Assembly: GCA_016936735.1 (NCBI GenBank)
Contig: JAFGXH010000321.1
Span: 7,221 to 71,220, forward strand
Length of the DNA: 64,000 nucleotides
Source: a bacterium
GTDB taxonomy: Bacteria; UBP6; JAFGXH01
Reading direction: 5' to 3'
The position numbers and the translations under genes were made by a program. Shown in pieces: positions 2,309 through 64,000 of this stretch (positions are counted from its first letter, which is position 1; each line of letters begins with the position of its first letter). The notes beneath the pieces are model-generated. The model ran no database searches and had not been told where the DNA came from. It saw only the letters and a list, made by a program, of their open reading frames with translations.

Positions 2309-5300
2309 TTATGATAATCCCATTTGAGCAAGAAAATTTGTTGAATCTGATTGAATCTTACTCAATTGAGCCTCCATTGTTGCAAATTGGTTATAAAGAG
2401 CAGCCTCTTTTTGTTCATTTCTTGTTTGATAATACTCAATCTGCTCATATAAACTTACCAACTCTTTATCAATTGTTCCATTAACAACAGTTGCCTCTTT
2501 TAGTATTCCACCTCTTTTAACATAATCATTGATTTTATTATCAATAACACGAGCAATTCCTGAATCATATTGAGGATTTGTCTCTGAATTATTAGCAAAA
2601 AGACGATAAACCTCATAACTATTCTCTTTTAAATTTGTTAAAAGAGTGTTATTCTCTTTAAGAGTTTTTAATATTGATTCTCTATATTCATCACTATCAA
2701 CACCATCATCTTTTCCAAATAAAAGATAACCAGCTTTAGCATCATCATTAGAACCTGTTGAGGCAACTTTTAAACCAATAACATCTAAAGATGAAAACTC
2801 ATCAGGCATTCCCCCTCTTATACTTGTTACTGCTTGACGCATATATGATCCAAAATCTTGAAATGTTTTCTCTTTAAAAATTATATTATACTCATTATAC
2901 ATTTTAAAATAGGTATTATAATCCTCTATCTCTGTATATGTCATATTATTCATATCATCACTTGAAAGAGGATTTAGATATTTTTTCTGTTCAGAACTTA
3001 ATTTATCTGGATTTAAGCGAGTCATCAAATCATTATATCCAACAACAAAATCTGCTATCTCCTCTAAAACTTTGTCTGTATCAACCTGAATATCAAGTGT
3101 TACATTTGTTTCACTAACTCCATTAAGTTGAAATGACACATCTTTAATAACATCATCAATATCATTTGTTGAGCGAACATAAGAGACTCCATCAACCATG
3201 AAATTGGCATCTTTTCCTGCTACTCCAATCTCCTCATAAAGAGAACTAACACCATATTCAGCAAAAGCAGATGAAGCAACTGTGCCAGAAACATCTGTTA
3301 TCTGAAACTTTCCAGCAATTCCTGCTGTTTCTGATTCAAATTTGATTCCACCTAATCCATCAGCCTGAACAGAGAGACCACTTCCACCAAAATCAAATTT
3401 CCAAGAGATATCATATGCAATACTTAAAGAGTTATATATAGCTGAAGCAGTATCTGATGTGTTATCACTTTGAGTTACTCCACTTCCAAGACCAATTTGA
3501 GATATATCACTACCAGTATCATTAAAAATAGTAAAAGAGGCTGCAGCCCCTCCTGAAGAGTTAAAAAGACGAACTGATTCCCCTTCTCCTCCCAACATTT
3601 TTACCTGAACATTTGTAGAACTTCCTCCAAGAGTTGTCCAATTTGCTGTATTATTCCACTCCCTTATTAAATCATCTTTACTATATATTGTTTTTCCAGA
3701 GTTATTTGTCCATCTATAACCAGTTGAACCATCTGTTCCAGCCATAATAATAAAACTGGTTCCAGAGGTTATTCCCGTTGTAAAATCAAGATCTAAAAGC
3801 TCTGTATAGGCACCAGTTCCATTTGTTGCAGATAATGTGATATCAGTATTCACTCCACTTGCACCAAAATTTATAGTACTACCTGCAAAATTACCACTTA
3901 TTGATGAAAAATCACCATCTAAAGTTGATTTTTTAGAACTAATATTCATAACCTCTAAAAAGTTTGATGTATCATATGATGAACCAATTGTTACTCTTTT
4001 TTGATTTGTATCTACATCTCCCATTTTTGAGTATAGTAGAAATTGGTCTGTACTAGTATCATAAGATGCTATAACTCCTGCAGAGGAGTTATTTATTTTC
4101 TCAATAACTCCATTTAATGAGTCATTTTGATTAACATATATAGAGACTCCATTTATAGAGAATGTTCCATTTGAGACAGTTGCTCCTAAATTTGCTAGAT
4201 ATAAAGCCTTATTTGTATCTATTGAAGAGGTAGATGATGAGTTATAGGCTGTACCACCACTTGATAATGAGAGTTTTGTTGATGTTAAAAAATTTGAGTT
4301 ATCTGAATTAGCTCCTAATGATATTGCACTATTTGTTGTGTTTGAAGTTAACATAAATCTATCATTTATTGAATCATAAGTTGCTGTAACTCCAGCTTTT
4401 GAGCCATTTATCATTGCTAAAGCATCATTCATTGTGATGTTATCAATATCATTCAATGTTATTGCTACATTATTTATTGTGAATGTTGCACTTTTTTTAC
4501 CATCAGCACCAACAACACCTGTAATTGGTGCCTTAATACCACTATTATTCAGACCTGTTGTAAATAGGTTTATAGTTCCTGTTGCAACATCACTCCCCCC
4601 CTGAATTTTAGATTTTGTAATTGGAGTAGGATTAAGTGTTGATGAAATAACAGTTTCAAAACTCCCTTGCTTAAGAGATGATAAAGTTCTTATAGAATAA
4701 CCATTTAAAAAACTATTATTATTCATTGTTGTTCTAAGAGAATCAAAATCTAATGCTGTTATTTTTTTCTGAATAGAGTTTACAGTTTGAGATGTTGTAT
4801 TAGTTAAACCAAGAGCACTATTCGCAAGATCTCCACCACCATCATTATTTATTTTAACATAAGAGTTGCTATCCTCTGCAACATTATAAAAGGATAATGA
4901 GGCATTATTCGAACCATCTGGATTTGATGACTCAAGCATAACATAGGTTTTATTTTCTGTTCCAAAATGTGAATTAAGTTCACTATTTATTTTCTGCTGA
5001 ATCTCATCTGTTACAGAGGAGATTTTACTACTATTTGCTTGATAAAATCCTAACTCTATATCAAATGTATAATCACCATAACTTATATTAAGTCTATTAT
5101 TAGATCTATTGATATTTGTTCCAATAGTCTGTTCTGTTGTTCCCTCTAAAGATGTTCCAGATGTTTTTTGAATAATCCCCTTTTTATCAAGGGTTAATGT
5201 AGAGGTTGCTTCAACATAACTTGATTTATCTTCAAGATCTATTTTATATTTTCCCTCTATATTATATCTTGAGTTTCCATAAACAGAGGATGCTCCAGAT

Positions 5301-5665
5301 GTATTTGTTTCTGTTATAAACTTCATTTTTGATATACTATTTTTTCCCCATGCAGACTCTGCCAACTGTGAAACTCTCATTGAGTATGTTTTTGAAGAGG
5401 CATTTACACCAGCTGAACCAGTTAAAACAGAACTATTTGAACTTGTTGTCTTTTTTGTTTGAAAAGTAGACTCTAATTTTAGCTTTAAAAGTGTCTTCTG
5501 AAATGACTCCATTTGAGAGGAGACACTTTTATAAACATCCTTTTTTAGAGAAACTAATTTTGTTTTATCCTCAAGACGACTTACAGATTGCTTCTCTATT
5601 TTCATCAAATCTGTAATTAATCCTTGAATATCCATTCCAGATGCAAGACCTGTAATTTGAGTCAT
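2309..5665 (-). CDS. fliD: Flagellar filament cap protein FliD (hook-associated protein 2), giant 1118-aa form
   Basis: The N-terminus MTQITGLASGMDIQGLITDLMKIEKQSV and the C-terminus ...YNQFATMEAQLSKIQSDSTNFLAQM match the conserved FliD terminal coiled-coil segments. It has a very long G/S/T/N-rich central region. Gene order fliD-fliS supports the call. Confidence 0.8.
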   Translation of the reverse strand: MTQITGLASGMDIQGLITDLMKIEKQSVSRLEDKTKLVSLKKDVYKSVSSQMESFQKTLLKLKLESTFQTKKTTSSNSSVLTGSAGVNASSKTYSMRVSQLAESAWGKNSISKMKFITETNTSGASSVYGNSRYNIEGKYKIDLEDKSSYVEATSTLTLDKKGIIQKTSGTSLEGTTEQTIGTNINRSNNRLNISYGDYTFDIELGFYQANSSKISSVTDEIQQKINSELNSHFGTENKTYVMLESSNPDGSNNASLSFYNVAEDSNSYVKINNDGGGDLANSALGLTNTTSQTVNSIQKKITALDFDSLRTTMNNNSFLNGYSIRTLSSLKQGSFETVISSTLNPTPITKSKIQGGSDVATGTINLFTTGLNNSGIKAPITGVVGADGKKSATFTINNVAITLNDIDNITMNDALAMINGSKAGVTATYDSINDRFMLTSNTTNSAISLGANSDNSNFLTSTKLSLSSGGTAYNSSSTSSIDTNKALYLANLGATVSNGTFSINGVSIYVNQNDSLNGVIEKINNSSAGVIASYDTSTDQFLLYSKMGDVDTNQKRVTIGSSYDTSNFLEVMNISSKKSTLDGDFSSISGNFAGSTINFGASGVNTDITLSATNGTGAYTELLDLDFTTGITSGTSFIIMAGTDGSTGYRWTNNSGKTIYSKDDLIREWNNTANWTTLGGSSTNVQVKMLGGEGESVRLFNSSGGAAASFTIFNDTGSDISQIGLGSGVTQSDNTSDTASAIYNSLSIAYDISWKFDFGGSGLSVQADGLGGIKFESETAGIAGKFQITDVSGTVASSAFAEYGVSSLYEEIGVAGKDANFMVDGVSYVRSTNDIDDVIKDVSFQLNGVSETNVTLDIQVDTDKVLEEIADFVVGYNDLMTRLNPDKLSSEQKKYLNPLSSDDMNNMTYTEIEDYNTYFKMYNEYNIIFKEKTFQDFGSYMRQAVTSIRGGMPDEFSSLDVIGLKVASTGSNDDAKAGYLLFGKDDGVDSDEYRESILKTLKENNTLLTNLKENSYEVYRLFANNSETNPQYDSGIARVIDNKINDYVKRGGILKEATVVNGTIDKELVSLYEQIEYYQTRNEQKEAALYNQFATMEAQLSKIQSDSTNFLAQMGLS

Positions 5666-8275: not shown

Positions 8276-9073
8276 TTATTTAAAGTCTGAGAATTTTGAG
8301 GCTTTAAGGTAGTTGGCAATCACTTCATAAATATTTGATATATCTTTAAAAGTGTTATTTTTTAAAAAATTAATGTGTTTTTCAACAATAGAAAAATCAC
8401 CTCTTGAGACAGGACCAGTTAGATTTTGAAGGGGAGTTTCTGAATTTTTAATATTCTCTGTTGCATCCTCTAAAAGTGGTATTACAGATTTTATATCTCC
8501 ATTTGGAATTAATTTTAAGGCAATATCCATAACAGCATGAATATAATTATTTGCAAAAATAGAGGCAATATGATATAGCATCTTCTCATCTTTTTTTATA
8601 ATCTGGTAGTTTTTGGTAATATAGTTTAAAATAGGTGTTGCAATAGATATACTATTATCATCACCCTCAACTGTGAAATAGTGAGACTCTATTTTTTTTA
8701 TTGATAGCTCAATATCATCTGTAAAACTCATCATTGGATGCAATGAGATAGAGTAGTTATTATCTGTTTTTAAAACACTTGATAATATTGTACCAGATGT
8801 ATTTATCAATAACTTTCCACTTAAATCAATACTCTTTAAACACTCAAAAAGACTCTCTATCTGAGTATCTTTTACTGAAACCAATATTATATCACTTTTG
8901 ATATCTTTTATATCAAAACTAATATTTGAATTAAGCCAATAATTAGAAATCTCTATATTTTTATCTGAATTTAGAATAACTAAATCTAGATTAATATGTT
9001 TTTTTAAAAGAAAAGCTAATGGAATTCCAACTTTTCCTGCTCCTATCAATGAAAAAGATACATTATTCATCAC
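8276..9073 (-). CDS. Rossmann-fold NAD(P)-binding protein with a DUF2520-like C-terminal domain
   Basis: The N-terminus is SLIGAGKVGIPLAFLL, a GxGxxG dinucleotide-binding motif. The C-terminus has LTGPVSRGDFSIVEKH, the GP..RGD motif typical of DUF2520. Its start codon overlaps the stop of the upstream gene by 1 nt. Confidence 0.5.
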   Translation of the reverse strand: MMNNVSFSLIGAGKVGIPLAFLLKKHINLDLVILNSDKNIEISNYWLNSNISFDIKDIKSDIILVSVKDTQIESLFECLKSIDLSGKLLINTSGTILSSVLKTDNNYSISLHPMMSFTDDIELSIKKIESHYFTVEGDDNSISIATPILNYITKNYQIIKKDEKMLYHIASIFANNYIHAVMDIALKLIPNGDIKSVIPLLEDATENIKNSETPLQNLTGPVSRGDFSIVEKHINFLKNNTFKDISNIYEVIANYLKASKFSDFK

Positions 9074-10677
9074 TACTCTAAAACCTCATCTGTAAACTCT
9101 GGTGATATCCATAAATCAATATCACTTTTTTTATCAATTATAACCTTTTTATTATCATTAATTGTTGATGATAACATATCAAAATAGAGTATTTTTTTTA
9201 TCACTCTTTTATATTTTTGAAAATTTTCAAAAATTTTTGATTGAGAATAAAACTCCCCTTCTGCCCTTTTTATTTTATCATTTTTATCAATCTCTGCTTC
9301 ACCTATTTTTTGGTAAGACTCAATAGATGCCATTGATAATAGGATTGTTTTATAGTTCTTGGCTTTATTCAGTTGTTCAATCTGTTCTTGATTTGTAGCA
9401 ACTAAATCCTCAAAAGCCTCTGCAACATCTTTTGGTGGATGAACATCTTTTAAATATAAAGATATAATCTCAATACCACTATCAATCTCACTCATTTTCT
9501 CTTTTATCTGCTTCTCAATTAATTTGATAACTTTATCCCTATTCTCTAAAATAATATCATTAAAACTAGTAGCTAGATATATTTTTGTTATTTCAGAATT
9601 AATTGCATCTGTTATAATCTCAACATGATCCTTAAAATTTAAAAAATATTTTTTAGGGTTACCAATCCTATATTCCAAAATAAAATATGGTAATACGAAA
9701 TTATCATCTCCTGTAATCATCATAGTTGGATTGCCATGCTGTTGAGCCCAAATTAAAGGACCATTCCCTATATTTCCAATCTCTATTTTATTAATAATAC
9801 CTGTTTGAATATATACAATTTTATCAATAGGGGTTGGATATTTAAAATAGATTCCTGAAGAGTTCACAGAGATAATTTTACCAAATCTTAGTTGAAGAGC
9901 AGTAAAACCATACTCCACTTTATAAAAAATATTCATAATAAGAGCTATCATCATAAATATTAAAAAGGATATAATAACCCTTTTTTTACTAATATTTATT
10001 TTCTCAAAAATGGATGTAATAAACCATCTCTTTTGAAAAACATCTAAAAGAGAGTCTCTATCAGCCTTTAATGCTGAAATAGTATTAATAAATAGTTGAA
10101 AAGAGAATGATAGTATTACAAATGCTAAAAAAGCGGCAGAATACCTATCAATATTAATTCCCCTACTATATAAAATAAGAGTAAACCCTGTTATTAAAGA
10201 GGTTATCATATCTGTTTTTGAGTGCATACTATCTGCTTTTAGTGCAGGAGAACTCTCTTTTTCTCCAACAATCTGTTGAAATTTAAAAAGAAAATAGGAT
10301 GTAAAAGAGAATATAATAAACAGAATTCCAGTAAATAGAGCACCTTTAATTATCATTTTATTATAGTAAAAAACCTGATAAAATATTGACAACGATATAT
10401 ATGATAGAAAAACTGAGATTAACAATGCTGAAATCAACTCAGGTTTTTTACTTTTTGTTTTAGAAGAGAGTTGTATTGCAATAAAAACAAAAAAGGTTGT
10501 AGCAAAATCACTAAAACCATGCCAAGCCTCTGTGTATGCTGTTAAACTTCCTGAGATAAAATAGACTAAAAATTTACCTGCTGTTACTAAAATAACAATT
10601 ATTATTGATATAAGTGATGTTTTTTGAGATAATGTCATATTCTGTCCTTTTATAGCAAAATTATGGAGATATAACAA
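9073..10677 (-). CDS. Membrane protein fusing a cation-diffusion-facilitator-like 6-TM domain to an SPFH/band-7 (HflK/HflC-like) domain
   Basis: Two HxxxD motifs (AWHGFSD and MHSKTDM) sit in hydrophobic helices, as in CDF transmembrane helices TM2 and TM5. There is an extra TM helix (ISFLIFMMIALIMNIFY). Then VEYGFTALQLRFGKIISV...YLKDVHPPKDVAEAFEDLVATNQEQIEQL is a typical prohibitin-homology domain followed by a coiled coil. Confidence 0.55.
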   Translation of the reverse strand: MLYLHNFAIKGQNMTLSQKTSLISIIIVILVTAGKFLVYFISGSLTAYTEAWHGFSDFATTFFVFIAIQLSSKTKSKKPELISALLISVFLSYISLSIFYQVFYYNKMIIKGALFTGILFIIFSFTSYFLFKFQQIVGEKESSPALKADSMHSKTDMITSLITGFTLILYSRGINIDRYSAAFLAFVILSFSFQLFINTISALKADRDSLLDVFQKRWFITSIFEKINISKKRVIISFLIFMMIALIMNIFYKVEYGFTALQLRFGKIISVNSSGIYFKYPTPIDKIVYIQTGIINKIEIGNIGNGPLIWAQQHGNPTMMITGDDNFVLPYFILEYRIGNPKKYFLNFKDHVEIITDAINSEITKIYLATSFNDIILENRDKVIKLIEKQIKEKMSEIDSGIEIISLYLKDVHPPKDVAEAFEDLVATNQEQIEQLNKAKNYKTILLSMASIESYQKIGEAEIDKNDKIKRAEGEFYSQSKIFENFQKYKRVIKKILYFDMLSSTINDNKKVIIDKKSDIDLWISPEFTDEVLE

Positions 10678-29665: not shown

Positions 29666-32600
29666 TTAAAGAATCTCATCCTCAGAACGAACAACCTCCA
29701 TCTCTAATCTGGAGTAGTTTTGAATACCAGTTCCAGCAGGAATTAAACGTCCCATAATAACATTCTCTTTTAATCCCATAAGGTAATCGATTTTACCATG
29801 AATAGCTGCTTCTGTGAGAACTTTAGTTGTCTCTTGGAAAGATGCAGCAGAGATAAAAGACTCTGTTGTTAATGCAGCACGGCTAATACCTAAAAGAAGC
29901 GGTTTTGCAGTTGCTGGTCTTTTACGAAGTTTGAGAAGCTTCATTTTCTCATCTTCAAATCTAAAGCGGTCAATATTCTCTTCACTTAAGAAAACGCTAT
30001 CTCCAGCATGAATAATCTGAACTTTTTTAAGCATTTGGCGAACAATAACCTCAATGTGTTTATCATTGATTGCAACACCCTGGCTACGATAAACTTTCTG
30101 GATCTCTTTTACAAGAAATTTAGAAAGCTCTTTTTCACCCTTAATTTTAAGAATATCATGTGGGTTAATATCCCCTTCAGTAATACGCTCTCCAGCACGA
30201 ATATAGTCACCATCTTTTACAACAGTCTCTTTTGTACGTGGAATCTCATACTGTTTCTCTTTACCAACTTCAGGTTTGATTTTAATTCTAACTTTTGTTT
30301 TAGTTGCAGTTCCAAACTCAACAATACCATCAATTTCAGATACAAGTGCAGTATCTTTTGGTTTTCTAGCTTCAAAAAGCTCTTCAACTCTAGGAAGACC
30401 AGCAACAATATCCTCATTTTTACGCTGTGTTTTGGTTTTACTTGCTAAAACAGTTCCAGGCTCTATTTTCTGACCATCTCTTATAGCAGCAGCAATACCA
30501 AAATCTTTTGTAAGATGGTAAACCGCAATCTCCTCTCTATCTTTTGTGGATCTAACTGTAATTGGTTGACCAAACTCATCAACTATAGCAATTGCAGGTT
30601 TAAACTCCTTTTTACCTTTATGTTCAATAATTCTTTTAATAGTACTTTCATGTCCTGTTTTTGCTTTACTTTGAGAAACCTCCTCTTTGTAAGTAACATC
30701 TTGTACTAAATCCATAAATTTTACAGTTCCACCAACCTCAGATATAATAACTTTGGAGTGTGGATCTTTTTGTAGAATTTTTGAATTTTTAAGAACCTCT
30801 TGAGCATCTTTTACAAATATTTTTGAACCATACTCAACATTAATAACCTCTTTTTCACGACCATTTTTATCAATAAGTCTAAGATTACCATTACGAGTAA
30901 CAACAACATCAACACCATCTTTATCTTTAATTGTTGATATACGGTCAAAAACAACTTTACCTTCAACTTTAGAGAGATATTCAAGTTCTGAAGCAGAACC
31001 AGATGCAACCCCTCCTTGATGGAATACACGCATTGTTAACTGTGTTCCTGGCTCTCCAATTGATTGAGCAGCAATAACTCCAATTGCTTCACCAATATTA
31101 ACCTGCTCTCCTCTTGCAAGATCTCTACCATAACATTTACGGCAAACACCTTTTCTTGATTTACAAGTTAGAACAGATCTAATTCTTACAGTCTCAATAC
31201 CTGCCTCTAAAATATCATCAATAACTTTCTCATTAATCTCTTCACCTTTTGGAACAATAACTCTTCCATCAGATGTAACAACATCATCTAATGCTGTACG
31301 ACCAAGTATTCTATCAATAAATAGTTCCTGTTTTTCAGCATTGTTTTTACCCTCAATCTCATCAATATCCACCTCAAGACCAACAATTGTACCACAATCA
31401 TAAGATGTAACAATAGCATCATGAGCAACATCAACAAGTTTTCTTGTTAAATAACCAGATGAAGCTGTTTTAAGAGCTGTATCTGAAAGACCTTTTCTAG
31501 CACCATGTGTTGAAATAAAATACTCTGACACAGACAAACCTTCACGAAAGTTTGCTTTAATTGGTGTTGGAATAATATCTCCATTAGGTTTAGTCATAAG
31601 ACCACGCATCCCTGATACCTGTTTAATCTGGCTATCAGAACCACGAGCTCCAGAGTCTTTCATAATATAGATTGGATTTAAACTATCCTCCTCTTTTACA
31701 ACAGAGAATCCATATTTATCAACAGTTTTAACATTCACTTTACTAATGTATTTTGTAATAGCATTAGATACTCTTTCTGTTGTTTTTTCCCAAAGCTCTT
31801 TTACTCTATTAATTTTTTCATCTTCAGAGAGAAGTTCATTTGCAACCTGCTCATCAAACTCCTCAATTTTATGTTGAGCCTCTTCAAGAATAGATTTTTT
31901 TGCTTCAGGAATAATCATATCATTGATATTAACAGAGATTCCAGAAAGTGTTGCCTGTCTAAAACCAAGATCTTTAATTTTATCAGCAAAAATAACAGTT
32001 GCCTTAGGTCCAACCTCAATAAAACATTTATGAAGTAGTTTTGTAATCTCTTTTTTACCTAAAACTTTATTTATATCCATAAATCTTAATCCTCTTCCTT
32101 CAAATTCAGGATCAGATTTTTTAGGAGTAATTTGCCAAAACAGAATTCTACCAGGAGTTGTATCCTCAAGTTTTCCCTCTATTCTAACTTTAACTTTAGC
32201 ATGAATATCAACTTTATCATACTCAAGAGCCATTACTGCCTCTTCAGGAGATGAGAATACCATTCCTCCATTCTCTCTAAAAAGACCAAGCTCAATTTGA
32301 GCAGGAGTTAATAGTGATTTTTTACCATTTGAAACAACTGGTAAAAGAGTATCTCCTTGAATTTTTTCATATTCAAATCTATTTTGTTGAGACAATTTAT
32401 ATACACAATATGCCTCTTTTAATGATGAAAATTGAAAATCTTTCTTTCCAAGTTTTTTTAAATCAACATCAACTCCAAGAGATTTAAGTGCATCTTTTGA
32501 TGTTAAACCAGCCTCCTCATTCTCTTTTAAATCAAGATTAGGAATATCAGGTAACCAACCACCACCTTTACGAAAATATCTCTCTCTTGTTATATAGTAT

Positions 32601-34666
32601 AAACCAAGTACAATATCTTGATGTGGAGATATAATTGGTTTTCCACTTGCAGGAGAAAGAATATTGTTTGTAGACATCATCAATACTCTTGCCTCAATTT
32701 GAGCCTCAATTGATAAAGGAAGATGTACAGCCATCTGGTCACCATCAAAGTCCGCATTAAATGCAACACAAACAAGAGGATGAAGCTGAATAGATTTACT
32801 TTCAACTAAAATTGGTTCAAATGCCTGAATACCAAGTCTATGAAGAGTTGGAGCACGGTTTAGTAATACTGGATGCTCTTTTACAATATCTTCAAGAACT
32901 TCAAATACTACCTCTTCCTGATCTTCAACTTTTTTCTTAGCTGATTTTACATTAGTAACTAAACCTCTTTCTATCAATTTGTTGAAAATAAATGGTTTAA
33001 ATAACTCAAGAGCCATTTTTTTAGGTAAACCACATTGATGTAATTTTAAATCTGGACCAATTGTAATAACTGAACGACCAGAGTAGTCAACACGTTTTCC
33101 TAATAGATGTTGACGAAAACGTCCCTGTTTTCCTTTTAAAGACTCTGTAAGAGATTTTAATGGGCGACCATTATTTGATTTTGCAGGTTTTGTCATTGAT
33201 GAGTTATCAAAAAGAGCATCAACAGCCTCTTGAAGCATTCTTTTCTCATTTCTAACAATGATAGATGGAGCTCCAATATCAATAAGTTTTTTTAAACGAT
33301 TATTTCTTGTAATAATACGACGATATAGATCATTTAAATCACTTGTTGCAAAACGTCCACCCTCAAGAGGAACTAATGGTCTTAAATCTGGAGGAAGAAC
33401 AGGAATAACATTTAAAATCATCCACTCTGCTTTGTTTTCTGATATATAAAAAGCCTCAACAATTTTGAGTCTTTGTGAATATTTTTTCTTTTTTGTTTCA
33501 GATGTCTCTTTTTTTAGTTGTATACGAAGAATATCTGAGAGACTTTTTAAATCAATTCTTTCTAATAAGGCACTTAGTGATTCAGCACCTCTATCTGCAG
33601 AAAATGTATCAAAAAACTTTTTAAGCATTGAGAAACCTGTTTCTGCTTCAAAAAGCTTGGTTTCACCAATTAATGCAAGATATTCATCTTTATTTAACCA
33701 ATCACCAACTGATGGAAGAGATATAGTTTCTACTCCCTTAATATCTTGTACTGTTGTTACACAATAAACCTCTCCAAAAAGGAGATCTACAAGATAGGAT
33801 GGATTGATAAAGTTTGATGGTAGATGTGAAAAATCTGAATCATAAAGATACTCTTTTCCCTCTAAATCACAAAAACTATCAATAAGAGCATTGAGATATT
33901 TTCTATTTTTATAAAAATCACCTAATTTCTCTCTTAAGAAATTTAATGCAGTTTCACCAGTTTCTGCACCAATTGATCGATTATCCATAAACTCTTCAAG
34001 TGTTATAAGGGAACACTCTTTAAAATCATCATTTCCCCTTGTAACAACATAAAGTTTTCTATTTTTAATATCAGATAATCTCTCCTCTGGAATATTTAAA
34101 AAAATTTGAGGAAGTGTGTCTGTTAATAATTGATATGCCTCTTCGGTCATAATCAATCCCTCTTTCATCACATCATCTCTATAAAGACCTGTAAATCCAG
34201 GATTTACAACAGCATAAAAATCCTCAAACAAAAGTTTACTCATCTCAACATGAGTATAATTTAGTAGGTAACCGATTTTACTTGGAGAACGAAAAAACCA
34301 AGGATGAATTACAGGACTTGCCAATTCAATATGACCAATCCAATTTCTTCTTACTGAAGAACTTGTAATTTTTACACCACATTTCTCACAAGTTAGCCCC
34401 TCATATTTTCTTTTTTTATATTTTCCACATAAACAGGTATAATCTTTTACTGGACCAAATATTTTTGCACAAAAAAGGCCATCTGGTTCAGGTTTATGTG
34501 TTCTATAATTGATTGTTTCAGGTTTTTTAACCTCTCCATTTGAGTGATCTCTGATATCATCAGGAGAGGTTAGAGAGATTCTTAGTGCAGTATAGTTTTT
34601 ATCATTAATCTCTTTTTTTATATTGTTGGTTCCAAAAAAAACGTCGTTCAAGCTTCCTCCAATCAA
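29666..34666 (-). CDS. rpoC: DNA-directed RNA polymerase subunit beta-prime (1666 aa, with lineage-specific insertions)
   Basis: It has the zinc-binding [28 protein letters not shown] (the catalytic DFDGD) and a trigger loop/bridge helix. It lies downstream of rpoB. Confidence 0.97.
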
Positions 34667-34738
34667 AAGAGTTTAAAAGTCCCCCTGATTTCACAGAGGG
34701 ACAAGTTTTGTATTATATAAAAATAAAAATTCTCATCA

Positions 34739-37700
34739 TCAATCGATAATGGTTCCCAGCTTTTCACGACGAAGCTCTTCATAACGATTGATACTCTCAT
34801 CATCGAGTTTCTCAATTTTTAAACAAAGAGCCTCAAGTTCTTTTAATAAAACATTAAAGGCCTCCGGGGTACCTGCACGAAGAACATTGTCACCCTTAAC
34901 AATAGCTTCATACATACGGTCTCTACCATTAATATCATCAGATTTAACAGTTAAAAACTCTTGAAGAATATAAGCCGCACCATATGCCTCTAGAGCCCAA
35001 ACCTCCATCTCTCCAAGACGTTGGCCTCCAAATTGAGCTTTACCTCCAAGAGGTTGTTGAGTAACAAGAGAGTATGGTCCTGTTGAACGAGCATGTATTT
35101 TTTCATCAACTAAGTGATGTAGTTTTAGAATATACATAACACCAACAGTAACCTCTTGGTCAAATGGCTCTCCTGATTGACCATCAAAAAGAATAGTTCT
35201 TCCATTTTCAGGAAGATCAGCAAGAATTAGTTTTTTTCTAATTCCCTCCTCTGTGATTCCATCAAACACAGGGTTAGCAAAAAATAGACCAGTTTTATGT
35301 TTTTCAACAAAAAGCTCTAAATTATCCTTATTTAAAGCATCAACATAAACTTTCTCTTCAGGTTTATCATATATTTGATAAAGAAACTCTTTAATCTCTT
35401 CAAGAGATCTTTTTTCTTGATACATTTTATAAAGTTTCTCTCCAAGACCTTTTGCAGCCCAACCAAGATGAACCTCTAAAATCTGGCCAATATTCATACG
35501 TGATGGAACACCAAGAGGATTTAAAACCATCTCAACAGGAGTACCATCTGGTAAATATGGAAGATCCTCCTCTGCAAGAATACGAGATACAACCCCTTTA
35601 TTACCATGACGTCCAGACATTTTATCACCAACCTGTAGTTTTCTTTTAATAGCTAAAATAACTTTAACCATTTTTCTAACTCCAGGTGTAAGCTCATCCC
35701 CTTTAGAGAGAGTCTCTATTTTCTTTTTATACATTTGATCAATGTATTTCACTTTTTTAGATAGATTACTAATAATAGCTTTTAGTTTTTTATTAACAGA
35801 GGAGTCCTCTACTTTAACATCACTATAAAGCTCTTCATTTAAAAGTGCAAAATTATCTTTTGTATATGAATCACCTTTTGCAATTATTTTTCTTCCATCT
35901 TTAGAAAATAGTGTTTCAGATGCAACTTTTCCAACAACAAGCTCCTCAATACGAGCATAAGCATTTTTCTTAATAATTCTTTTTTGGTCATTTGCATCTT
36001 TTTTAAGACGTTGTTCCTCCTCATTCTCTATTAAAATAGAGCGAGCATCTTTTTCAACACCTTTTCTTGTAAATATTTTAACATCAATAACAGTACCAGA
36101 TATACCAGTAGATACTCTTAATGATGTATCCTTCACTTCATCAGCTTTACTTCCAAAAATAGCTCTTAACAATCTCTCTTCTGGAGTTAATTGTTGCTCT
36201 GCTCTTGGAGTAATTTTACCAACAAGAATATCATCCTGCTTTACTTTTGAACCAATTCGGATAATACCACTCTCATCAAGTTTTGAAAGCTTATCCTCTT
36301 TAGCACCAGGAACATCTCGTGTAATAGTCTCTGCACCAAGTTTTACATCTCTTGCAAAAACCTCCTCCTCTTCAATGTGAATAGAGGTAAAAATATCATT
36401 TTTAACAACTTTTTCAGAGATAAGAATTGCATCCTCATAGTTGTAACCATTCCAAGGCATAAAGGCAACAACTATATTACGACCAAGGGCAATCTCACCC
36501 ATATCGGTTGCAGGTCCATCAGCAAGAACATCACCTTTATTAATTCTATCACCTTTATGAACAACAGGAAGCTGATTAATACAGGTGTTCTGATTTGAAC
36601 GACGATATTTTGATAAATTATAAATATCAGCCTCTGTCTCTTCAATATCCTCTGTTGCATCTGCTCTTACAACAATTCTATTTGCATCAACATACTCAAC
36701 AACACCAGATCTACGGGCAATAACAACCATACCAGAGTCTTTTCCAACATGAACCTCCATACCAGTTCCAATAAAAGGAGCCTCTGTATGAAGAAGAGGA
36801 ACAGCCTGACGTTGCATATTAGAACCCATTAAAGCACGGTTTGCATCATCATGTTGTAAAAATGGAATCATTGATGCAGCAACAGAAACCATTTGGTATG
36901 TTGAAATATCCATTATCTCAACATCAGATGGTTTAACATAAACAAAATCACCATCTTTTCTTGCATAAACATAATCATATGTTATTTTTTGATTTTCATC
37001 AAATTTTACTTTAGCTTGAGCTATAATTTTTCCAGACTCTTCAAGAGCAGAAAAATAGTGGAGTTTATTTGTTATAACTCCGTTTTCAACCATACGATAT
37101 GGACTTTCAAGAAAGCCATAATCATTAATCTCAGCAAAAACAGCTAAAGAGGATATAAGACCAATATTTTGTCCCTCTGGTGTTTCAATAGGACAGATTC
37201 TTCCATAGTGAGTTGCATGAACGTCACGAACCTCATAACCTGCACGCTCTCTTTTTAAACCTGATGGTCCAAGAGCAGATAATCTTCTTTTATGAGTAAT
37301 TTCAGAAAGAGGATTTGTCTGATCCATAAATTGAGAAAGCTGAGATGAACCAAAAAACTCATTTAATGTTGCATGTAATGGTTTTGGATTAATTAGTTCA
37401 TGAGGATTAACAAGCTCAATATCAGAAGATGATACCATTTTATCCTCAATTGCTTTGATGATTTTGAGAAAACCTTTTTTAAACTCAAGTTCAACTAACT
37501 CACCAACAGCACGAACTCTTCTATTTGAAAGATGATCTATATCATCAACAATAGCTCCATTTAAACCATTATTTTTAATATCAATAAGATATTTTAAAGA
37601 CTCTATTATATCCTCTTTTGTTAAAGTTTTCTTGGTAAAAAAGAAAGCCTCTTCCATTAAAAGATATGTAAATCTCTCTTTTGCCTCTTCACTATCAAAC

Positions 37701-39574
37701 TCTAATTTAGGAAGAATATTCTCTTCAATAAAGGATTTAATCCAAAGAAGAGTATTTAAAATAATCTGTTTATTTTCTGGAAATAAAAGAATCTCATCTA
37801 AAATTTTTTGTGATAATGTTTTTTCAAATGATGTTGTAATCTTATCACTCATTTTGGAAACAATATCTTTAAACCCAACAGAAAGAACTGTTTTTGTGAT
37901 ATGTAATAGAGAATCAGTAACAATACTAACAGATGAAAATTCTGATAAATCCTCATTTTTAGCACTATCTCTTCTCATTATTTTTTCAAAATATTTTGTT
38001 ACTTTTTCTTCAAGAGACTTAGAGAAAAGATATGATAATTTTTTGAATGCTAAATGCTCTTTTCGAAGTTTGATATTGAATTTAATTCTACCAACTTCTG
38101 ACAAATCATATCTATTTGAATCAAATAACATTTGGTATAAGAAGCCTTCAGCCTCTTTAAATGTTGCAGGTTCATTAGGTCTCATTCTTCTAAAAATCTC
38201 TTTTAATGCTTGACGATGAATCTCTTCATTAAAAAAGTCAGATCCAAGAAGATCAAAAACCATTTTTGTAAATTTCTCTCTAACCTCTGCATTTTGTGTT
38301 GGTGAAGAGGTAAATCTGCGTGCAAGCTCTTTAAAATCCCCCTCATCTTCACTATTTTTAAATTTAAGCCTTGTAATAAGATCTTTGTGATCTTCATCTC
38401 TAATTCTATCAAGAGAACAGAGTGCAACATCTTTTAATAAAAGATCGGTTACTTTGTCAGATAGAAGAGTATCTTTTATATATGGTCCAGAGCTTGTTTT
38501 ATCAAGATATATAATATCAAACTCTCTTATACCTGAATCATAAAGAGTCTCTAAATCCTCTTTGTTTATCTCCTCTCCAACCATTTTAAGAAGATTATTT
38601 TTGGTATCAAGAATATTTGAATATGCAAAAAAACTTACATCAGCCTCTTTAATTGGAATCTCTGTAATATTTGCCTGTCTTAACTTATCAAGATTACGTT
38701 TATTTAAAAGCATTGATGCTTTTACAACAACCTCTCCTGTTTCAGGATGTCTAAACTCATGATTAATTTTTTTTCCAAGAAGCCAATCAAAGTTAACTTT
38801 TTTAAAAAGAAGAATTTTCTCCTCTTTTTTCCCTGTTTCAGGATCAACTTCAATTCCTCTTTCCATACGGATTTTTTCATTTTCATAGAAATAATGAATA
38901 ATCTCCTCTCCTGAATATCCAAGAGCTTTTAAAAGTGTTGTAACTTGAAGTTTTCTTTTTGTATCAATTTGAACATAACAGAGCTCTTTTGAATCAAATT
39001 CAAAAACAAGCCAAGAACCAACTGCAGGTATTATTTTAGCTTGATAAGTTACAGCTCTATTTAAAAGAGTAGTTGCCTCCTTAACATAAGATAAACCAGG
39101 TGAACGATGAAGCTGCATTACAACAACACGCTCTGTTCCATTTACAATAAATGTACCCTCATTTGTCATTATGTGGATCTCACCAAAATATACATTTTGA
39201 TTTCTTATCTCTTTTGTTTGAAGTTTAAATTGATTTCCTGGTAATGGAATTTTCTCATTAATAGTTAACTGAAACTCAACATTAAGAGGAACAGCATAAT
39301 TAGCACCTCTATATCTACACTCATCAACATCATATTTAGGATCTCCTATTTTGAATCCTAAATAGTCAATAATAACTGTTCCATCACTACTTCTTACTGG
39401 AAAAAGAGATTGGAATAGTCTATGTAGACCTGTTTGAGTAGGATCAACATTTAAATCTAAAAATTTTTTAAATGAATCAACCTGGTTTTTAAGAAGATTT
39501 GGAACAGTTATTAAATTTTTAATTTTTGCAAAACTTTTTCTTAATCTAAAGTTAGATTGAATTAATTCTGACAT
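34739..39574 (-). CDS. rpoB: DNA-directed RNA polymerase subunit beta (1611 aa, with a large insertion in the N-terminal third)
   Basis: It has conserved beta blocks: the Rif-region [33 protein letters not shown], and GNKGVVSRI...EDLPY....P. It lies downstream of rplL. Confidence 0.97.
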
Positions 39575-60565: not shown

Positions 60566-62581
60566 TTATAAAGAGAGGCAAACACCAATAACTCCAGCAG
60601 GTACTTGTTGTTGCATTGTATGAACATCAACACAGATTCCTCTTGAGCATGGCTCACCATTTGGAATACACATCTCTTGACATCTCTCCTGATTTTGAGC
60701 ACCAATACAATAAAATCCCTCTTCACAAAGAGTTTCAGTTGAATATGGAACCCCTATTTGATATTCAGGATTAACACATCCCTCTGAATTTTTTGGAAGA
60801 GTTCCATACTCTAAACAGTGATATTTTGACGTAACAGATAGTGTACACCCTTTTCCATCTATACATTCATTACTATTTTCTGGAGAGCATTGATCTACAT
60901 CACAAATCCCTTGATTTGCTGTAAGAGGAAAACAGATTGAATCCTCACCTTCACATGTTGAATTGTTGTATATTCCATTATCAGGATTACATGTTTCTGG
61001 TAAATTAAAACAAACCCCATTTAATCCCTCAGGATACTCTTGAGCATAAGTGTTTATATCAATACATCTTAAAGATGGATCATTTACACAACTATTTTCA
61101 GATGTTGGATCACATAACTCTTGACAAGTACCACGCTCTCCCTGATTTGCAGAGATACAAAATAAACCCTCTTTGCAAAGCTCCTCTGGATTATAGGTTA
61201 CATTTTCATTAAATTCAGGATTTACACAACCACTATCTTGATAATCTAATATTCCAACAGGAAGACATTTATTAACAGACATATAGCCTTTTTGACATGC
61301 TAATCCCTCTTCACAATCATCTCCACCTATTTCACACTCATCCTGAACACAGATTGAGTTATCTCCTGCTGGAAAACATAAGGCTTCATTTGGACAAGCT
61401 GGATTATTTTGAATCCCATTTTCTGAATTACAAAAAGATGGAACATCCATACATAATCCTATCTCTCTGTTTAATACTGCTGGACTTACATCTTCAAGGG
61501 CAATACATCTTCCGATTTCGCAATTATCGGTTTGAGCCAAAGGTGAACATAATTCCTGACATTTATATGGTTCTCCATCATCATCATCACCAACACAAAA
61601 TAATCCAACTTCACAAGCATCAAGTGCTGAAGTTGAATCCATGTTATCACAATCATCACCATATTTACCTAATCCAACTGGTCGACAAACTTTTGCTGTA
61701 ATCATTAAATCACAAACCCAGTTTTCAGGACATTGTGCTGTTGCATTTGATTGACATTCTGCATCCTCTTTAACACAAATTCCTGTATTTAATAAAATAT
61801 CGTCCAAATAGGGAACACAAATTCCTTTTTCACCACATGAACCTTCTGTTGTCATATCACAAAAAGCTCTACATTTATAAAAACCATCTTTAAAAACATC
61901 TGCACAAATAGTTCCCTCTTCACAATCAAACTCAGAAGGCATACATCTTTCTGCCTCTTTTTTTGAACCATCATTTGTGGATATACAGATTCCATCTTTA
62001 CAAGTTAATATAATTCCATCAATTGCAGGACAAACACCATCAGGATTTTCAATAGAACATTCATCTTTTAAATAACATTCACCTTCCAAACAATAAGAAT
62101 TTGTATCACAGGTCACATCAGTGCAATCATCATCTAATTCACATTTTTCAGTTAAACCATTATAAAAAGAGCCCTCTTGACAAACACACTCTCCATTTGA
62201 TGGATTACAAACTCTCCCACCAGAGCAACTAACATCACTGCATAATAATACACAATCTAACCCATTTGCTTTATAACCATCATCACAAGAACATGAAGCA
62301 ACACCATTACTATTTTGGCACTCTCCATGATTTGAACATGTTACATCTTCACAGGGATCAATGGTTGGCTCTTCACAAGCATGAGTCTCTGTATTACAGA
62401 TTTGAGATGTTAAACAGTTACTACTTGTATTACAACGCCCCGCTTTTAAAACACAAGCTCCATCATTACACTCCTCCCACTCTGAACACTCTGGAGAGCA
62501 TGTTTGGGTTTGATTATTGTTATTTGAGTCTCCACATCCTAAAAAAGTTAGAACAAAGAGAAAATATACTACTATTCTCAT
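60566..62581 (-). CDS. Extremely cysteine-rich secreted lipoprotein with EGF-like or follistatin-like internal repeats
   Basis: I chose the start at 62581 (MRIVVYFLFVLTFLGCGDS, with a lipobox Cys) because AGGAGG sits 5 nt upstream. It has about 100 Cys residues. It has recurring modules: GCVNPE(F/Y)..., CxEG(L/F)(F/Y)C(I/V), and CxDGYK.NGLDCV. Confidence 0.6.
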   Translation of the reverse strand: MRIVVYFLFVLTFLGCGDSNNNNQTQTCSPECSEWEECNDGACVLKAGRCNTSSNCLTSQICNTETHACEEPTIDPCEDVTCSNHGECQNSNGVASCSCDDGYKANGLDCVLLCSDVSCSGGRVCNPSNGECVCQEGSFYNGLTEKCELDDDCTDVTCDTNSYCLEGECYLKDECSIENPDGVCPAIDGIILTCKDGICISTNDGSKKEAERCMPSEFDCEEGTICADVFKDGFYKCRAFCDMTTEGSCGEKGICVPYLDDILLNTGICVKEDAECQSNATAQCPENWVCDLMITAKVCRPVGLGKYGDDCDNMDSTSALDACEVGLFCVGDDDDGEPYKCQELCSPLAQTDNCEIGRCIALEDVSPAVLNREIGLCMDVPSFCNSENGIQNNPACPNEALCFPAGDNSICVQDECEIGGDDCEEGLACQKGYMSVNKCLPVGILDYQDSGCVNPEFNENVTYNPEELCKEGLFCISANQGERGTCQELCDPTSENSCVNDPSLRCIDINTYAQEYPEGLNGVCFNLPETCNPDNGIYNNSTCEGEDSICFPLTANQGICDVDQCSPENSNECIDGKGCTLSVTSKYHCLEYGTLPKNSEGCVNPEYQIGVPYSTETLCEEGFYCIGAQNQERCQEMCIPNGEPCSRGICVDVHTMQQQVPAGVIGVCLSL

Positions 62582-62802
62582 AATACCTCCTAAAAAAAAA
62601 AGAAAAAACATCTATTAGACATAAAAAATAGGGTTTTATTTAAAAATTTAATAAAATGCTAATGATATTTATCAAAAAAAATATAAATAAACTAAAAATT
62701 ATCTATTTTTAATTTTCATTAAAAAATTTTTATCAGTTTAACCGAAAAACATTTTCTTTTCAAATAATTATTGTATAATGGGTTATATTTTGTGGAGCCT
62801 TT

Positions 62803-63318
62803 ATGGTTAAAATTAAGGATAATTTAGCAGAACTAGAAAAAAACCTTGATATATGTCGAGGATTAGCTGCAAAAAATCCAAATTCATCGAATTTAATGAA
62901 GTTGATATCAATATGTCACCAATTAAATCTCCATGAAGAGGAGTTTTTAAATTATGAAAAGCTCTATCAACAGTTACAAAATGAGGATGAACAAAAAATA
63001 GAGGAGATTATACTAAGAGTAAATGAGGAGAAATTTACAGATTTTCTTATACTTTCAAAATCGGTAGATTTTATAGAAAAGGCATTTATAGAAAGGATAG
63101 AGTATTGGCTTGAACGTGAGATTAGAGATAATCAGTTCTCTGAAGATTTTGTTGATATTCTAAAAGGAGATAAAGGATTAACCGATAAAGTAAGAAAAAA
63201 AATAAAATGTAAGTTAGAAAGAAAAAAAGATAATTTTAAAACACTCTTTTTTTCTGAAAAATTTGATAATTCAATATATGTATTTAAAATGATAAAAGAT
63301 ATAGTGAATTTTTTATAA
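62803..63318 (+). CDS. Hypothetical protein (171 aa)
   Basis: It is an ORF in an intergenic-looking context. It is charged and helical with no recognised motifs. Confidence 0.3.
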   Translation: MVKIKDNLAELEKNLDICRGLAAKNPNSSNLMKLISICHQLNLHEEEFLNYEKLYQQLQNEDEQKIEEIILRVNEEKFTDFLILSKSVDFIEKAFIERIEYWLEREIRDNQFSEDFVDILKGDKGLTDKVRKKIKCKLERKKDNFKTLFFSEKFDNSIYVFKMIKDIVNFL

Positions 63319-63360
63319 TTATTTGTTATACTAAACTTAGATTTTTCTTAAGGATTTTTA

Positions 63361-64000
63361 TGAAAATTATACCAAAAATTATAGCAATGATTGTACTAAT
63401 ATTACAACTATCAGGTTGTGCTGGTGATAAAATTATACAGGTTAAAGAGGCTGATAGAGTAAAAGATATTGAGAGTTTTTTTCAGATAATCTCAAAAAAA
63501 AGGGAAAATACTCCAAGAATTATTGCAGAAGCTGGTGTAGATACATTTCAAAAAGGGGAGAGAGTAAGAGGTGTTTTTATGCTTATGACAGAGAGACCCT
63601 ACTCTTTTAGATTAGATACAATATCTCCTTTTGAACAACCAATATCAACATTAATTATAAAAGATAAGGATATAAATTTTTATGAATTTGAAAAAAATAG
63701 ATGCTATTTTGGAGAAACAACAAGAGAGAATTTAAACAGATTTCTTCCAATGGAGTTAACATTACCACAATTAATAGATCTTTTTAGTGGAATTGCACCA
63801 ATGATAGTTTATGAAAATTACCAGTTTGAATATGATGAAAAAGAGGCTTTATATAAAATAACACTTATCAATGGTGAGCAAAAAGAGATTATTAGCTATA
63901 TTGCAGCAACTTTTCAAATAAAAAAATTAGCACTCTATAACAAAAATAAAAAAATATTAAATATCTCTTTTGATGAGTTTAACTCAAAATATGCAAAAAA
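63361..64000 (+). CDS. Lipoprotein, 3' partial (LolB/DUF4292-like fold is a guess). It runs off the window end.
   Basis: It starts ATG MKIIPKIIAMIVLILQLSGCAGDK, a lipobox. The frame stays open to position 64000. It is not in the ORF track because no stop is reached. Confidence 0.45.

Follow-up and report, generated by a model that had tools for sequence, protein, structure and literature searches.

An acidic, cysteine-rich lipoprotein with EGF-like N-terminal modules and three copies of a 16-cysteine unit in an uncultured bacterium

Introduction

Tandem arrays of small, cysteine-spaced modules are represented by the EGF arrays, whose eukaryotic members vary in module copy number. Cys-rich repeat lipoproteins of Myxococcota carry many tandem disulfide-type repeats and belong to "deltaproteobacterial" lineages; one example is the NCBIfam family TIGR02232, the "Myxococcus cysteine-rich repeat". 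Two further precedents concern T-rich sequence in front of a gene. In Escherichia coli, AGGAGG is the most efficient Shine-Dalgarno (SD) sequence and A/U-rich enhancers cooperate with strong SDs (PMC2176067), while intergenic T-tracts can work as promoter rheostats, for example that of Helicobacter pylori sabA (PMC4081817).

The locus described here lies in a 64-kb window, the whole stretch of bacterial DNA that was analysed, and touches on each of these systems: it encodes a lipoprotein built from repeated cysteine-spaced modules and is preceded by a T-rich tract abutting a perfect SD sequence. A literature search found no relevant similar bacterial proteins.

Results

Gene, start site and host context

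The coding sequence occupies 60566..62581 on the minus strand, with its stop codon at 60566-60568 and its ATG start at 62581-62579, and its product matches exactly the hypothetical protein JXR93_12250 (bacterium; NCBI). Support for ATG 62581 comes from the N-termini of homologs, which align there on MR/MK, and from the AGGAGG located 4 nt upstream. The first-pass annotation had given an ORF at 60566..62611 (-) encoding 671 aa; this ORF is present in both the ORF list and the sequence, and the length holds when counted from ATG 62581. The extended start at ATG 62611, which would place the T tract inside the ORF and make frameshift switching possible, was discarded because an SD is missing in front of it and the related loci L007, L002 and L014 do not conserve it, the homologs aligning instead at 62581. 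The tract, previously placed within the extended ORF, consequently lies outside the supported one, which starts at ATG 62581.

Recent horizontal acquisition of the gene was also considered and rejected. The gene is native, because its GC3 of 0.152 equals that of rpoB/rpoC. Its neighbours in the window are housekeeping genes, including flgF/G/A/H and genes for a dinG-like helicase, an M20 peptidase and an SRPBCC protein; no conserved operon context was found for it in the window, nor do distant relatives have any context in common. The presence of flgH and a LolA/LolB-like lipoprotein gene nearby marks the host as a diderm. The best named relatives of its RpoB are approximately 60% identical and come from Myxococcota, Deltaproteobacteria and Binatia MAGs, a coarse placement.

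Lipoprotein signal and cysteine content

The N-terminus carries a type II signal peptide and lipobox (62534..62581 (-)), in which MRIVVYFLFVLTFLG immediately precedes C16, the predicted lipidated residue. The PROSITE PS51257-type pattern applied here combines an N-terminal basic residue, an uncharged hydrophobic stretch and [LIVMFWSTAG](2)-[LIVMFYSTAGCQ]-[AGS]-C within the first ~35 residues. The segment MRIVVYFLFVLTFLGC fits this pattern, as do P0002-P0005 and P0007, and the pattern is conserved in all full-length homologs. Lipobox prediction thereby bears out the earlier assignment as a lipoprotein, and the motif MRIVVYFLFVLTFLGCG on which that assignment was built is indeed found at the N-terminus.

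Cysteine accounts for 81 of the 671 residues (12.1%), approximately 20 times the median ORF value of the window (0.6%); the extreme cysteine richness noted earlier is thus real, although the figure of ~15% was too high. The number of cysteines in each module is even, at 4+4+6+6+4+4+4, plus 3x16, plus the lipid Cys, and all cysteine positions are invariant in an alignment of seven orthologs. The spacings are mainly C-x4-6-C, with no CC, no CxxC and only two CxC motifs. Additionally, the mature protein is strongly acidic, with a pI of 4.05 and 116 D+E residues against 31 K+R.

N-terminal 4-Cys and EGF-like modules

The module architecture bears out the proposal of repeated cysteine-spaced modules. 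Beyond the lipid anchor, aa 28-69 form two 4-Cys modules (CSPECSEWEECNDGAC / CNTSSNCLTSQICNTETHAC; 62375..62500 (-)), which are also present in the unrelated lipoproteins P0008 and P0010. These are followed by two 6-Cys EGF-like domains, the first at aa 77-110 (62252..62353 (-)), containing the PROSITE EGF_2 signature CSCDDGYKANGLDC, and the second, degenerate one at aa 114-147 (62141..62242 (-)), recognised from the EGF module alignment. The EGF test combined the spacing C-x4-C-x5-C-x6-9-C-x-C-x8-12-C with the signature C-x-C-x2-[GP]-[FYW]-x4-8-C; aa 77-110 match both and aa 114-147 match the spacing alone. All six cysteine columns are invariant across the EGF module set, including aa 114-147.

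Pfam scores for these modules fall below the gathering thresholds (EGF_2, 17.4 bits against a cut-off of 22.1; EGF_3, 15.5 against 28.5). A profile built from the EGF modules of the family matches the EGF domains of NELL, Notch, uromodulin, fibrillin and factor X in the PDB, with E-values down to 2e-9. The model of the whole protein consists entirely of beta-hairpins (pLDDT 70) and retrieves EGF arrays from the PDB with Foldseek. Judged from these profile and structure comparisons, both 6-Cys modules near the N-terminus are true members of the EGF-like class.

The first-pass annotation had described a near-continuous series of EGF-like or follistatin-like modules with a recurrent N-terminal EGF pattern. 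Profile searches confine the EGF-like part to aa 77-147 and leave out the rest of the protein, which is its bulk; within that part, one module (aa 77-110) fits the pattern with its PROSITE EGF_2 signature and the second is degenerate. The series does not continue further, since hhalign assigns the C-terminal unit a probability of only 0.9% against the EGF module profile. Follistatin-like modules likewise found no backing: Pfam gave no FOLN or Kazal match at E<=10, and follistatin structures appear only at Foldseek E-values of 6.6-7.9.

Following the EGF-like domains, aa 148-237 (61871..62140 (-)) comprise three 4-Cys hairpin modules, defined by cysteine count and by the beta-hairpins in the model. 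These modules constitute the first part of a strongly conserved core, being 87% identical to P0002 with a dN/dS of 0.12-0.19.

The C-terminal 16-Cys unit

The remaining residues, aa 238-671, make up 65% of the protein and comprise three copies of a ~145-aa unit with 16 cysteines each. Copy 1 spans aa 238-377 (61451..61870 (-)), copy 2 aa 378-524 (61010..61450 (-)) and copy 3 aa 525-671 (60569..61009 (-)). All three were delineated by fragment-versus-whole BLAST and local iterative HMMs, self-BLAST of the whole protein having given no match. Copies 2 and 3 are approximately 40% identical (E about 1e-24). The internal repeat analysis replaces the ~90-aa period proposed earlier with one of ~145-147 aa. 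The three motifs read as marking at least three copies of that period also recur unequally: the CxEG(L/F)(F/Y)C-type and CQE(L/M)C.P motifs occur three times each, and GCVNPE(F/Y) only twice.

Searches of Pfam, NCBIfam and PDB sequences gave no significant match to the unit, and a set of 29 units yielded no EGF match beyond noise at E 0.014. NCBIfam returned zero families for the protein at E<=10 and, apart from noise, none for 10 relatives at E<=1. Copy 2, modelled with AF2, reached a pLDDT of 92.2 and a pTM of 0.81, and because of these values the unit is regarded as one compact domain. Compared with the PDB by Foldseek, this model shows only noise-level likeness to colipase and prokineticin. 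Diverged copies of the unit are present in the high-GC lipoprotein-like proteins P0015, P0016 and P0018.

Rarity, orthologs and evolution

The family is very rare: a search of 5.8 billion clusters yields 7 proteins, and one of 241 million metagenome records yields 4 loci. All family loci have a GC content of ~28-30%. One of them, L007, carries the label "Anaeromyxobacter", which is at odds with its 28% GC. Module number differs among orthologs, which contain 1-5 EGF modules and 2-3 16-Cys units.

Conservation is distributed unevenly along the chain. It peaks in copy 1 of the 16-Cys unit, with 93% identity to P0002 and 53-58% to P0003-7; copy 2 diverges fast (39% identical to P0002), and copy 3 occurs only in P0001 and P0002, being absent from P0003-P0007. 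Overall, conservation is strong in a central core (aa 147-377); the distal units change quickly but retain all of their cysteines. The dN/dS ratios of 0.07-0.19 in the core and 0.28-0.51 in the flanks indicate purifying selection throughout, and at the regional level the latter range gives no support for positive selection on the distal units. Because dS is also ~2-fold lower in the core, part of the conserved-core signal could reflect recombination rather than selection alone.

A neighbouring TlpA-like oxidoreductase

Three orthologs (L004/L005, L006 and L011) are immediately preceded, in the same orientation, by a gene for a TlpA-like WCPPC thioredoxin lipoprotein, and the surrounding genes otherwise differ. 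P0005 is one of the proteins with this neighbour. The P0002, P0003 and L007 loci lack it, and tblastn found no thioredoxin-like gene in the 64-kb window. Because of these absences, the adjacency may partly reflect synteny among close relatives.

The T6-C-T10 tract and the 5' leader

The intergenic region in front of the gene is 220 bp long, and the 5' leader contains a T6-C-T10 tract on the coding strand (62592..62608 (-); A10-G-A6 on the plus strand), composed of T6 at 62608-62603, C at 62602 and T10 at 62601-62592. As the first-pass annotation had stated, the tract stands upstream of the SD, with T10 directly abutting AGGAGG (62586..62591 (-)), which is followed by the 4-nt spacer TATT and the ATG. 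The independent L001 re-assembly of the same run in Logan contains an identical tract on a contig unbroken through it, which is weak evidence since both assemblies derive from the same reads. An upstream alignment, in which the clade shares TGT(C/A)(T/A)AAT, suggests a -10-like element, TGTCTAAT, at 62614..62621 (-). A consensus promoter scan did not call this element and placed the tract within no predicted -35/-10 spacer. Use of this element would put the transcription start within the T tract or close to it. Scanning the window for Rfam families and tRNAs gave no hits, and upstream of the gene there is no known riboswitch or leader RNA.

Within the window, T10 is the only A/T run of at least 10, against an expectation of 2.5 from an iid compositional model, so that such runs are not enriched. 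Runs of nine (T9/A9) lie at 1567, 15678, 17832 and 48829. Among 30 SD-preceded starts in the window, this gene ranks first both for the T content of its 20-nt leader (85%, the mean being 47%) and for run length (10, with 7 the next best). Relatives carry tracts at the same site, namely T3-C-T5-A-T7 in L007, T5-C-T4 in L002 and T6-C-T3-C in L014. The T-rich tract and (A/G)GGAGG are thus conserved in position in all four clade members, and the run lengths differ.

These observations bear on the possibility that the protein is a phase-variable or rheostat-controlled surface antigen, in which slipped-strand mispairing at T10 alters leader or promoter geometry and thereby tunes or switches expression. 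The longest homopolymer of the window does precede a probable surface protein gene, intergenic T-tract rheostats have a precedent (PMC4081817), the distal units evolve fast, and run lengths vary among relatives (T10, T5-A-T7, T4, T3), down to a 1-nt T5/T6 difference in the first run of the close pair L002/L014; neutral drift, however, would give the same variation. Mechanistically the proposal is weak. The tract lies outside the ORF and neither inside nor next to a predicted -35/-10 pair, and in its position between the -10-like element and the SD a change of one nucleotide alters neither the reading frame nor the SD-ATG spacing. Moreover, runs of this length are no more numerous than composition predicts (1 against 2.5), the run is interrupted in the closest relative, the two assemblies agree on its length (with the same-reads reservation given above), and the window holds no other candidate contingency tract. 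Phase variation is accordingly judged unlikely: nothing shows the tract acting as a switch, and its length drifts between lineages. A strong-expression leader is more likely than a switch, and by analogy with E. coli the tract would most plausibly serve as an A/U-rich translational enhancer supporting high expression.

Discussion

The reading preferred here, to which we assign a probability of roughly 60%, is that the gene encodes a disulfide-stabilised binding or scaffold lipoprotein of the cell envelope, expressed from a U-rich leader with strong translation initiation. The protein would be exported, lipid-anchored at its N-terminus and very acidic (mature pI about 4), with its 80 mature cysteines paired in about 40 disulfides, which would lock the small beta-hairpin modules of the chain. 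The 4-Cys and EGF-like modules, variable in number among orthologs, would form an anchor-proximal stalk, followed by the conserved core (aa 147-377), of which copy 1 of the 16-Cys domain is a part. Outermost would be one or two additional copies, in which all cysteines are retained and the remaining sequence diverges fast. Most likely the protein serves in binding or as a scaffold, being rigid, resistant to proteases and stress, and probably exposed at the surface; a conserved partner would be bound by the core and variable ligands by the distal copies. Folding would rely on periplasmic thiol-disulfide oxidoreductases, for which the TlpA-like WCPPC lipoprotein encoded directly upstream in one sub-clade is a candidate. 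The T6-C-T10 tract would be the U-rich part of a short leader beside its perfect AGGAGG.

A more specific proposal is offered tentatively. The 16-Cys unit might be an undescribed extracellular domain, possibly derived from a colipase-like two-finger core, that an uncultured AT-rich deltaproteobacteria-like lineage deploys as tandem copies on its lipoproteins, with diverged versions in high-GC relatives. Its anchor-proximal copy would be conserved, its distal copies would diversify around a constant disulfide framework as a variable surface that recognises ligands or prey, and a dedicated TlpA-like oxidoreductase would act as the folding partner.

A rival reading is a periplasmic or secreted hydrolase inhibitor or cofactor, whose 16-Cys units would be multi-headed disulfide-knotted domains of the colipase, WAP or Kazal type. 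Genes consistent with such a role are an alpha-2-macroglobulin (A2M/bMG10) gene upstream in L002 and a serpin gene near the distant relative P0015; each of these protease-inhibitor neighbours, however, is seen at a single locus, either beyond a gap of 440 bp or in opposite orientation. The similarity scores are all non-significant, no reactive-site-like motif was identified, and the reading is considered improbable. A metallothionein-like thiol protein that buffers metal or sulfide, with cysteines as ligands rather than disulfide partners, would suit 12% Cys in a very acidic protein and the sulfidic settings that the MAG record names of relatives may suggest, but is very improbable for an exported protein with a lipobox, EGF-like N-terminal modules, an even cysteine number in each module, predicted beta-hairpins, a compact and confidently predicted unit fold, and CC, CxxC and CxC motifs too few (0, 0 and two) to form a metallothionein motif cluster.

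If the envelope binding or scaffold reading is correct, the few disulfide-rich domain families known in bacteria would gain a new member. The 16-Cys unit, confidently modelled and with no significant counterpart in solved structures or curated families, is a good target for structure determination and may serve as a compact, very stable scaffold. A bacterium investing ~40 disulfides in one envelope protein would also bear on oxidative folding in poorly known, probably anaerobic lineages. Where a thioredoxin-like lipoprotein is encoded next to the gene, as in one sub-clade, it may be a dedicated folding partner. The homopolymer is of lesser importance than the protein.

Comparison with known systems

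The EGF arrays (EGF_2/EGF_3; NELL1/2, Notch, uromodulin, Pfs25) share with the target the two 6-Cys modules with EGF spacing at aa 77-147 and a module copy number that varies among orthologs, as in eukaryotic arrays. The target differs in being bacterial and lipid-anchored, in scoring below the Pfam gathering thresholds, in having no convincing calcium-binding EGF motif in its EGF modules, and in being ~90% non-EGF, with five 4-Cys hairpins and three 16-Cys units. For the middle of the 16-Cys unit, the only recurring likeness, weak in both structure and sequence, is to colipase-fold proteins (colipase, prokineticin/MIT1/Bv8 and the Dickkopf Cys-rich domain), and consists of two disulfide-pinned beta-hairpin fingers and the pattern C..G..C...C..GL.C.

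The Cys-rich repeat lipoproteins of Myxococcota resemble the target as lipoproteins with tandem repeats, and the host RpoB is ~60% identical to those of Myxococcota, Deltaproteobacteria and Binatia; they differ in that neither the target nor its relatives match an NCBIfam family and in that the target repeat is far longer, at ~145 aa.

For the leader, the H. pylori sabA T-tract (PMC4081817) provides an intergenic poly-T before a probable surface protein gene, with a length that differs among related genomes. Tracts of the sabA type, however, adjoin the -35 and shift the alignment of UP element and core promoter, whereas the target run lies downstream of the sole conserved -10-like element and abuts the SD, and its variation is known between genomes. 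The A/U-rich enhancers (PMC2176067) have a function shown in E. coli, whereas the tract here is a near-pure homopolymer in an unrelated uncultured lineage; the likeness lies in a U-rich stretch directly 5' of a six-base AGGAGG at standard spacing.

Gene assignment and product

The minus-strand ORF at 60566..62611 of the window is confirmed, and its 671-aa product (P0001) exactly matches the NCBI MAG entry 'hypothetical protein JXR93_12250 [bacterium]'. The supported start is the ATG at 62581–62579, which is preceded by AGGAGG (62591–62586) with a 4-nt spacer and yields an MR/MK start shared by every full-length homolog in the alignment. An alternative in-frame ATG further upstream, at 62611, lacks a Shine–Dalgarno (SD) sequence and is unconserved in the nearest relatives. 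The GC3 of the gene (0.152) lies close to that of rpoC and rpoB (0.154–0.159), indicating a native gene. As proposed in the first-pass annotation, the N-terminus, MRIVVYFLFVLTFLG followed by Cys, fits the lipobox pattern, as do those of the homologs, and the mature protein is strongly acidic (pI 4.05). The gene and its upstream T-tract described in that annotation are both real, but its cysteine fraction, repeat length and GCVNPE copy number require correction: the protein contains 81 cysteines, or 12.1% rather than ~15%, which is ~20x the median of window ORFs.

Modular architecture

Beyond the lipid Cys16, the other 80 cysteines fall into modules with even Cys numbers: two 4-Cys modules (aa 28–69), two 6-Cys modules (aa 77–110 and 114–147), three further 4-Cys modules (aa 153–237), and three copies of a 16-Cys unit (aa 238–377, 378–524, and 525–671). 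The boundaries of this unit give a repeat period of ~145 aa in place of the ~90 aa first reported, and GCVNPE, previously counted in at least three copies, is present in only two. Copies 2 and 3 share ~40% identity (E about 1e-24, fragment BLAST), and every Cys is invariant across the seven-member family alignment.

Both N-terminal 6-Cys modules are EGF-like. Pfam gives sub-threshold EGF_2/EGF_3 matches at aa 77–110, and an NCBIfam search of the protein returns no match. The assignment is carried by a profile built from the family's 6-Cys modules and the alignable modules of P0008–P0010 (proteins sharing only N-terminal modules), which matches solved EGF domains in the PDB with E down to 2e-9, including those of NELL1/2, uromodulin, Notch1, fibrillin, selectins and factor X, together with an AlphaFold model of the full-length protein, which consists entirely of beta-hairpins (pLDDT 70) and retrieves EGF arrays in Foldseek. 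The EGF-like assignment does not extend to the 16-Cys unit: its profile aligns to the EGF profile with an hhalign probability of 0.9%, Pfam gives no significant match for any of 29 unit sequences, and PDB sequences searched with profiles of the family or the unit yield nothing significant. The EGF-like reading thus covers roughly one-tenth of the protein. The remainder, mainly the three 16-Cys units, is an undescribed disulfide-type domain family, with a presumed disulfide pattern and a very narrow distribution.

An N-terminal 8-Cys element (C..WEEC...G.C.LKAGRC....C) also occurs outside the window in P0008 and P0010, otherwise unrelated lipoproteins with beta-propeller (SBBP) or lamin-tail domains, which suggests that the element is an independently mobile module.

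Distribution and host lineage

Besides its own entry, the protein retrieves six family members and three further proteins with only N-terminal modules in common when 5.8 billion protein clusters are searched by word index. When 1.84 billion representatives are scanned exhaustively with HMMER, the profile of the non-EGF core finds three representative clusters belonging to the family itself and eight weak matches (E 7e-9 to 7e-4), in which local iterative HMMs detect the 16-Cys unit, including the high-GC proteins P0015, P0016 and P0018. Among 185,579 species genomes just 2 loci encode the family, and 241 million metagenome records contain just 4, all family loci having 27.5–33% GC.

The host is diderm, with a flagellar L-ring gene, and represents a deep, poorly sampled lineage, since the closest named sequences to the C-terminal half of its RpoB, from Myxococcota, Deltaproteobacteria and Binatia MAGs, reach at most ~60% identity. 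The rpoB (1611 aa) and rpoC (1666 aa) genes (29666–39574, minus strand) are unusually long for bacteria, implying large lineage-specific insertions. Elsewhere in the window, the flagellar cap protein FliD (2309–5665, minus strand) reaches 1118 aa, far longer than usual, with ~700 residues separating its FliD_N and FliD_C domains, and one ORF (9073–10677, minus strand) combines Cation_efflux (CDF transporter) and SPFH/Band 7 domains. The closest relative, L007 (DYRY01000171.1), is titled an 'Anaeromyxobacter dehalogenans' MAG, yet its contig has 27.9% GC and is syntenic with the window; the label looks wrong.

Mosaic divergence

Among orthologs, the number of EGF-like modules ranges from one to five and that of 16-Cys units is two or three; divergence is mosaic along the gene. 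Against the ortholog P0002, the core (aa 147–377) retains 87–93% amino acid identity (dN/dS 0.07–0.12, dS 0.63–0.69), compared with 55% at the N-terminus (0.29, 1.48) and 39–48% in units 2 and 3 (0.38–0.51, 1.14–1.34). The pattern against L007 is the same but milder, with dN/dS 0.19 and dS 0.17–0.29 in the core versus 0.28–0.29 and 0.44–0.57 in aa 17–146 and 378–500. Purifying selection acts across the whole gene, most strongly on the core. In both comparisons (L007 and L002, the P0002 locus), dS in the central segment (61451–62143, minus strand) is ~2-fold below both flanks and dN/dS is lower too; the lower dS hints at recombination or synonymous-site constraint besides purifying selection.

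Genomic context

Set apart by AT-rich spacers (17% and 12.5% GC), the gene sits by itself among housekeeping genes, with an SRPBCC protein, an M20 peptidase, a DinG-like helicase and flgF/G/A/H downstream. Upstream lies a divergent 171-aa ORF (62803–63318, plus strand) without a Pfam match, which also adjoins the gene in L007, and past it a lipoprotein with an LSGC lipobox (63360–64000, plus strand), whose weak, sub-threshold LolA-family similarity (E 0.0019) suggests that it may be a LolB-like lipoprotein-insertion factor.

At the P0004, P0005 and P0007 ortholog loci, a ~200-aa TlpA-like lipoprotein gene lies directly upstream on the same strand (L004 7328–8000; L006 7270–8000; L011 512–1220), encoding an AhpC-TSA/Redoxin/thioredoxin fold with a WCPPC motif, and the remaining flanking genes differ. 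This arrangement fits a dedicated thiol-disulfide partner of the Cys-rich ortholog; however, no such gene occurs in the window or at the P0002, P0003 and L007 loci. The spacer between the two genes contains a tandem motif, AAATCACATA(T/A)AAATCACATA(T/A)AA (ATTCACGTAAAATTCACATAAAA in L011), a possible operator or promoter element that does not occur upstream of the gene in the window. At the P0002 locus, the same-strand upstream gene (L002 2471–4678) encodes an alpha-2-macroglobulin-type protein (A2M/bMG10), separated from the P0002 gene by a 440-bp spacer with inverted repeats, and a serpin gene lies near the distant relative P0015 (L009). Distant relatives share no gene context.

Probable function

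Most likely, the protein serves in binding or as a scaffold in the cell envelope, anchored by its lipid and stabilised by disulfides, with surface exposure, ligand and disulfide pattern all inferred. A role as a hydrolase inhibitor or cofactor is less well supported, as is that of a metal-thiolate protein; a motif scan of the protein finds no CC or CxxC. This orphan family does not amount to a novel type of system; it is moderately interesting and a reasonable target for structural biology.

The T-rich leader

The T6-C-T10 tract (coding strand, 62608–62592) immediately adjoins the SD, as the first-pass annotation described, and reads identically in a second assembly, from Logan, of the same sequencing run. 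Long A/T runs are not enriched in the 64 kb (one run of at least 10, the tract itself, versus 2.5 expected from composition). The placement of the tract stands out: among the leaders of 30 SD-preceded window starts, it is the longest run and its leader the most T-rich 20 nt (85% versus a mean of 47%). At the homologous site, four clade members carry T6-C-T10, T3-C-T5-A-T7, T5-C-T4 and T6-C-T3-C, each followed by (A/G)GGAGG, so that a pyrimidine-rich leader is conserved but only this genome has the long uninterrupted run; in orthologs further removed, just AATTATTT stands ahead of the SD. A consensus promoter scan predicts no -35/-10 pair in the vicinity of the tract, and the only conserved promoter-like element is TGT(C/A)(T/A)AAT just upstream, which would position the tract at the extreme 5' end of the transcript.

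A change of +/-1 in tract length leaves the reading frame and SD–ATG spacing unaltered; a phase-variable antigen is a less well supported reading of the protein, and slippage-based tuning of expression a minor possibility. In E. coli, AGGAGG is the most efficient SD, and A/U-rich enhancers cooperate with strong SDs (PMC2176067). From its position, its conservation and comparison with known systems, the tract is best read as part of a putative strong translation-initiation leader: the T-tract rheostats documented in H. pylori adjoin the -35 element (PMC4081817), whereas this tract lies downstream of the promoter-like element and abuts the SD.
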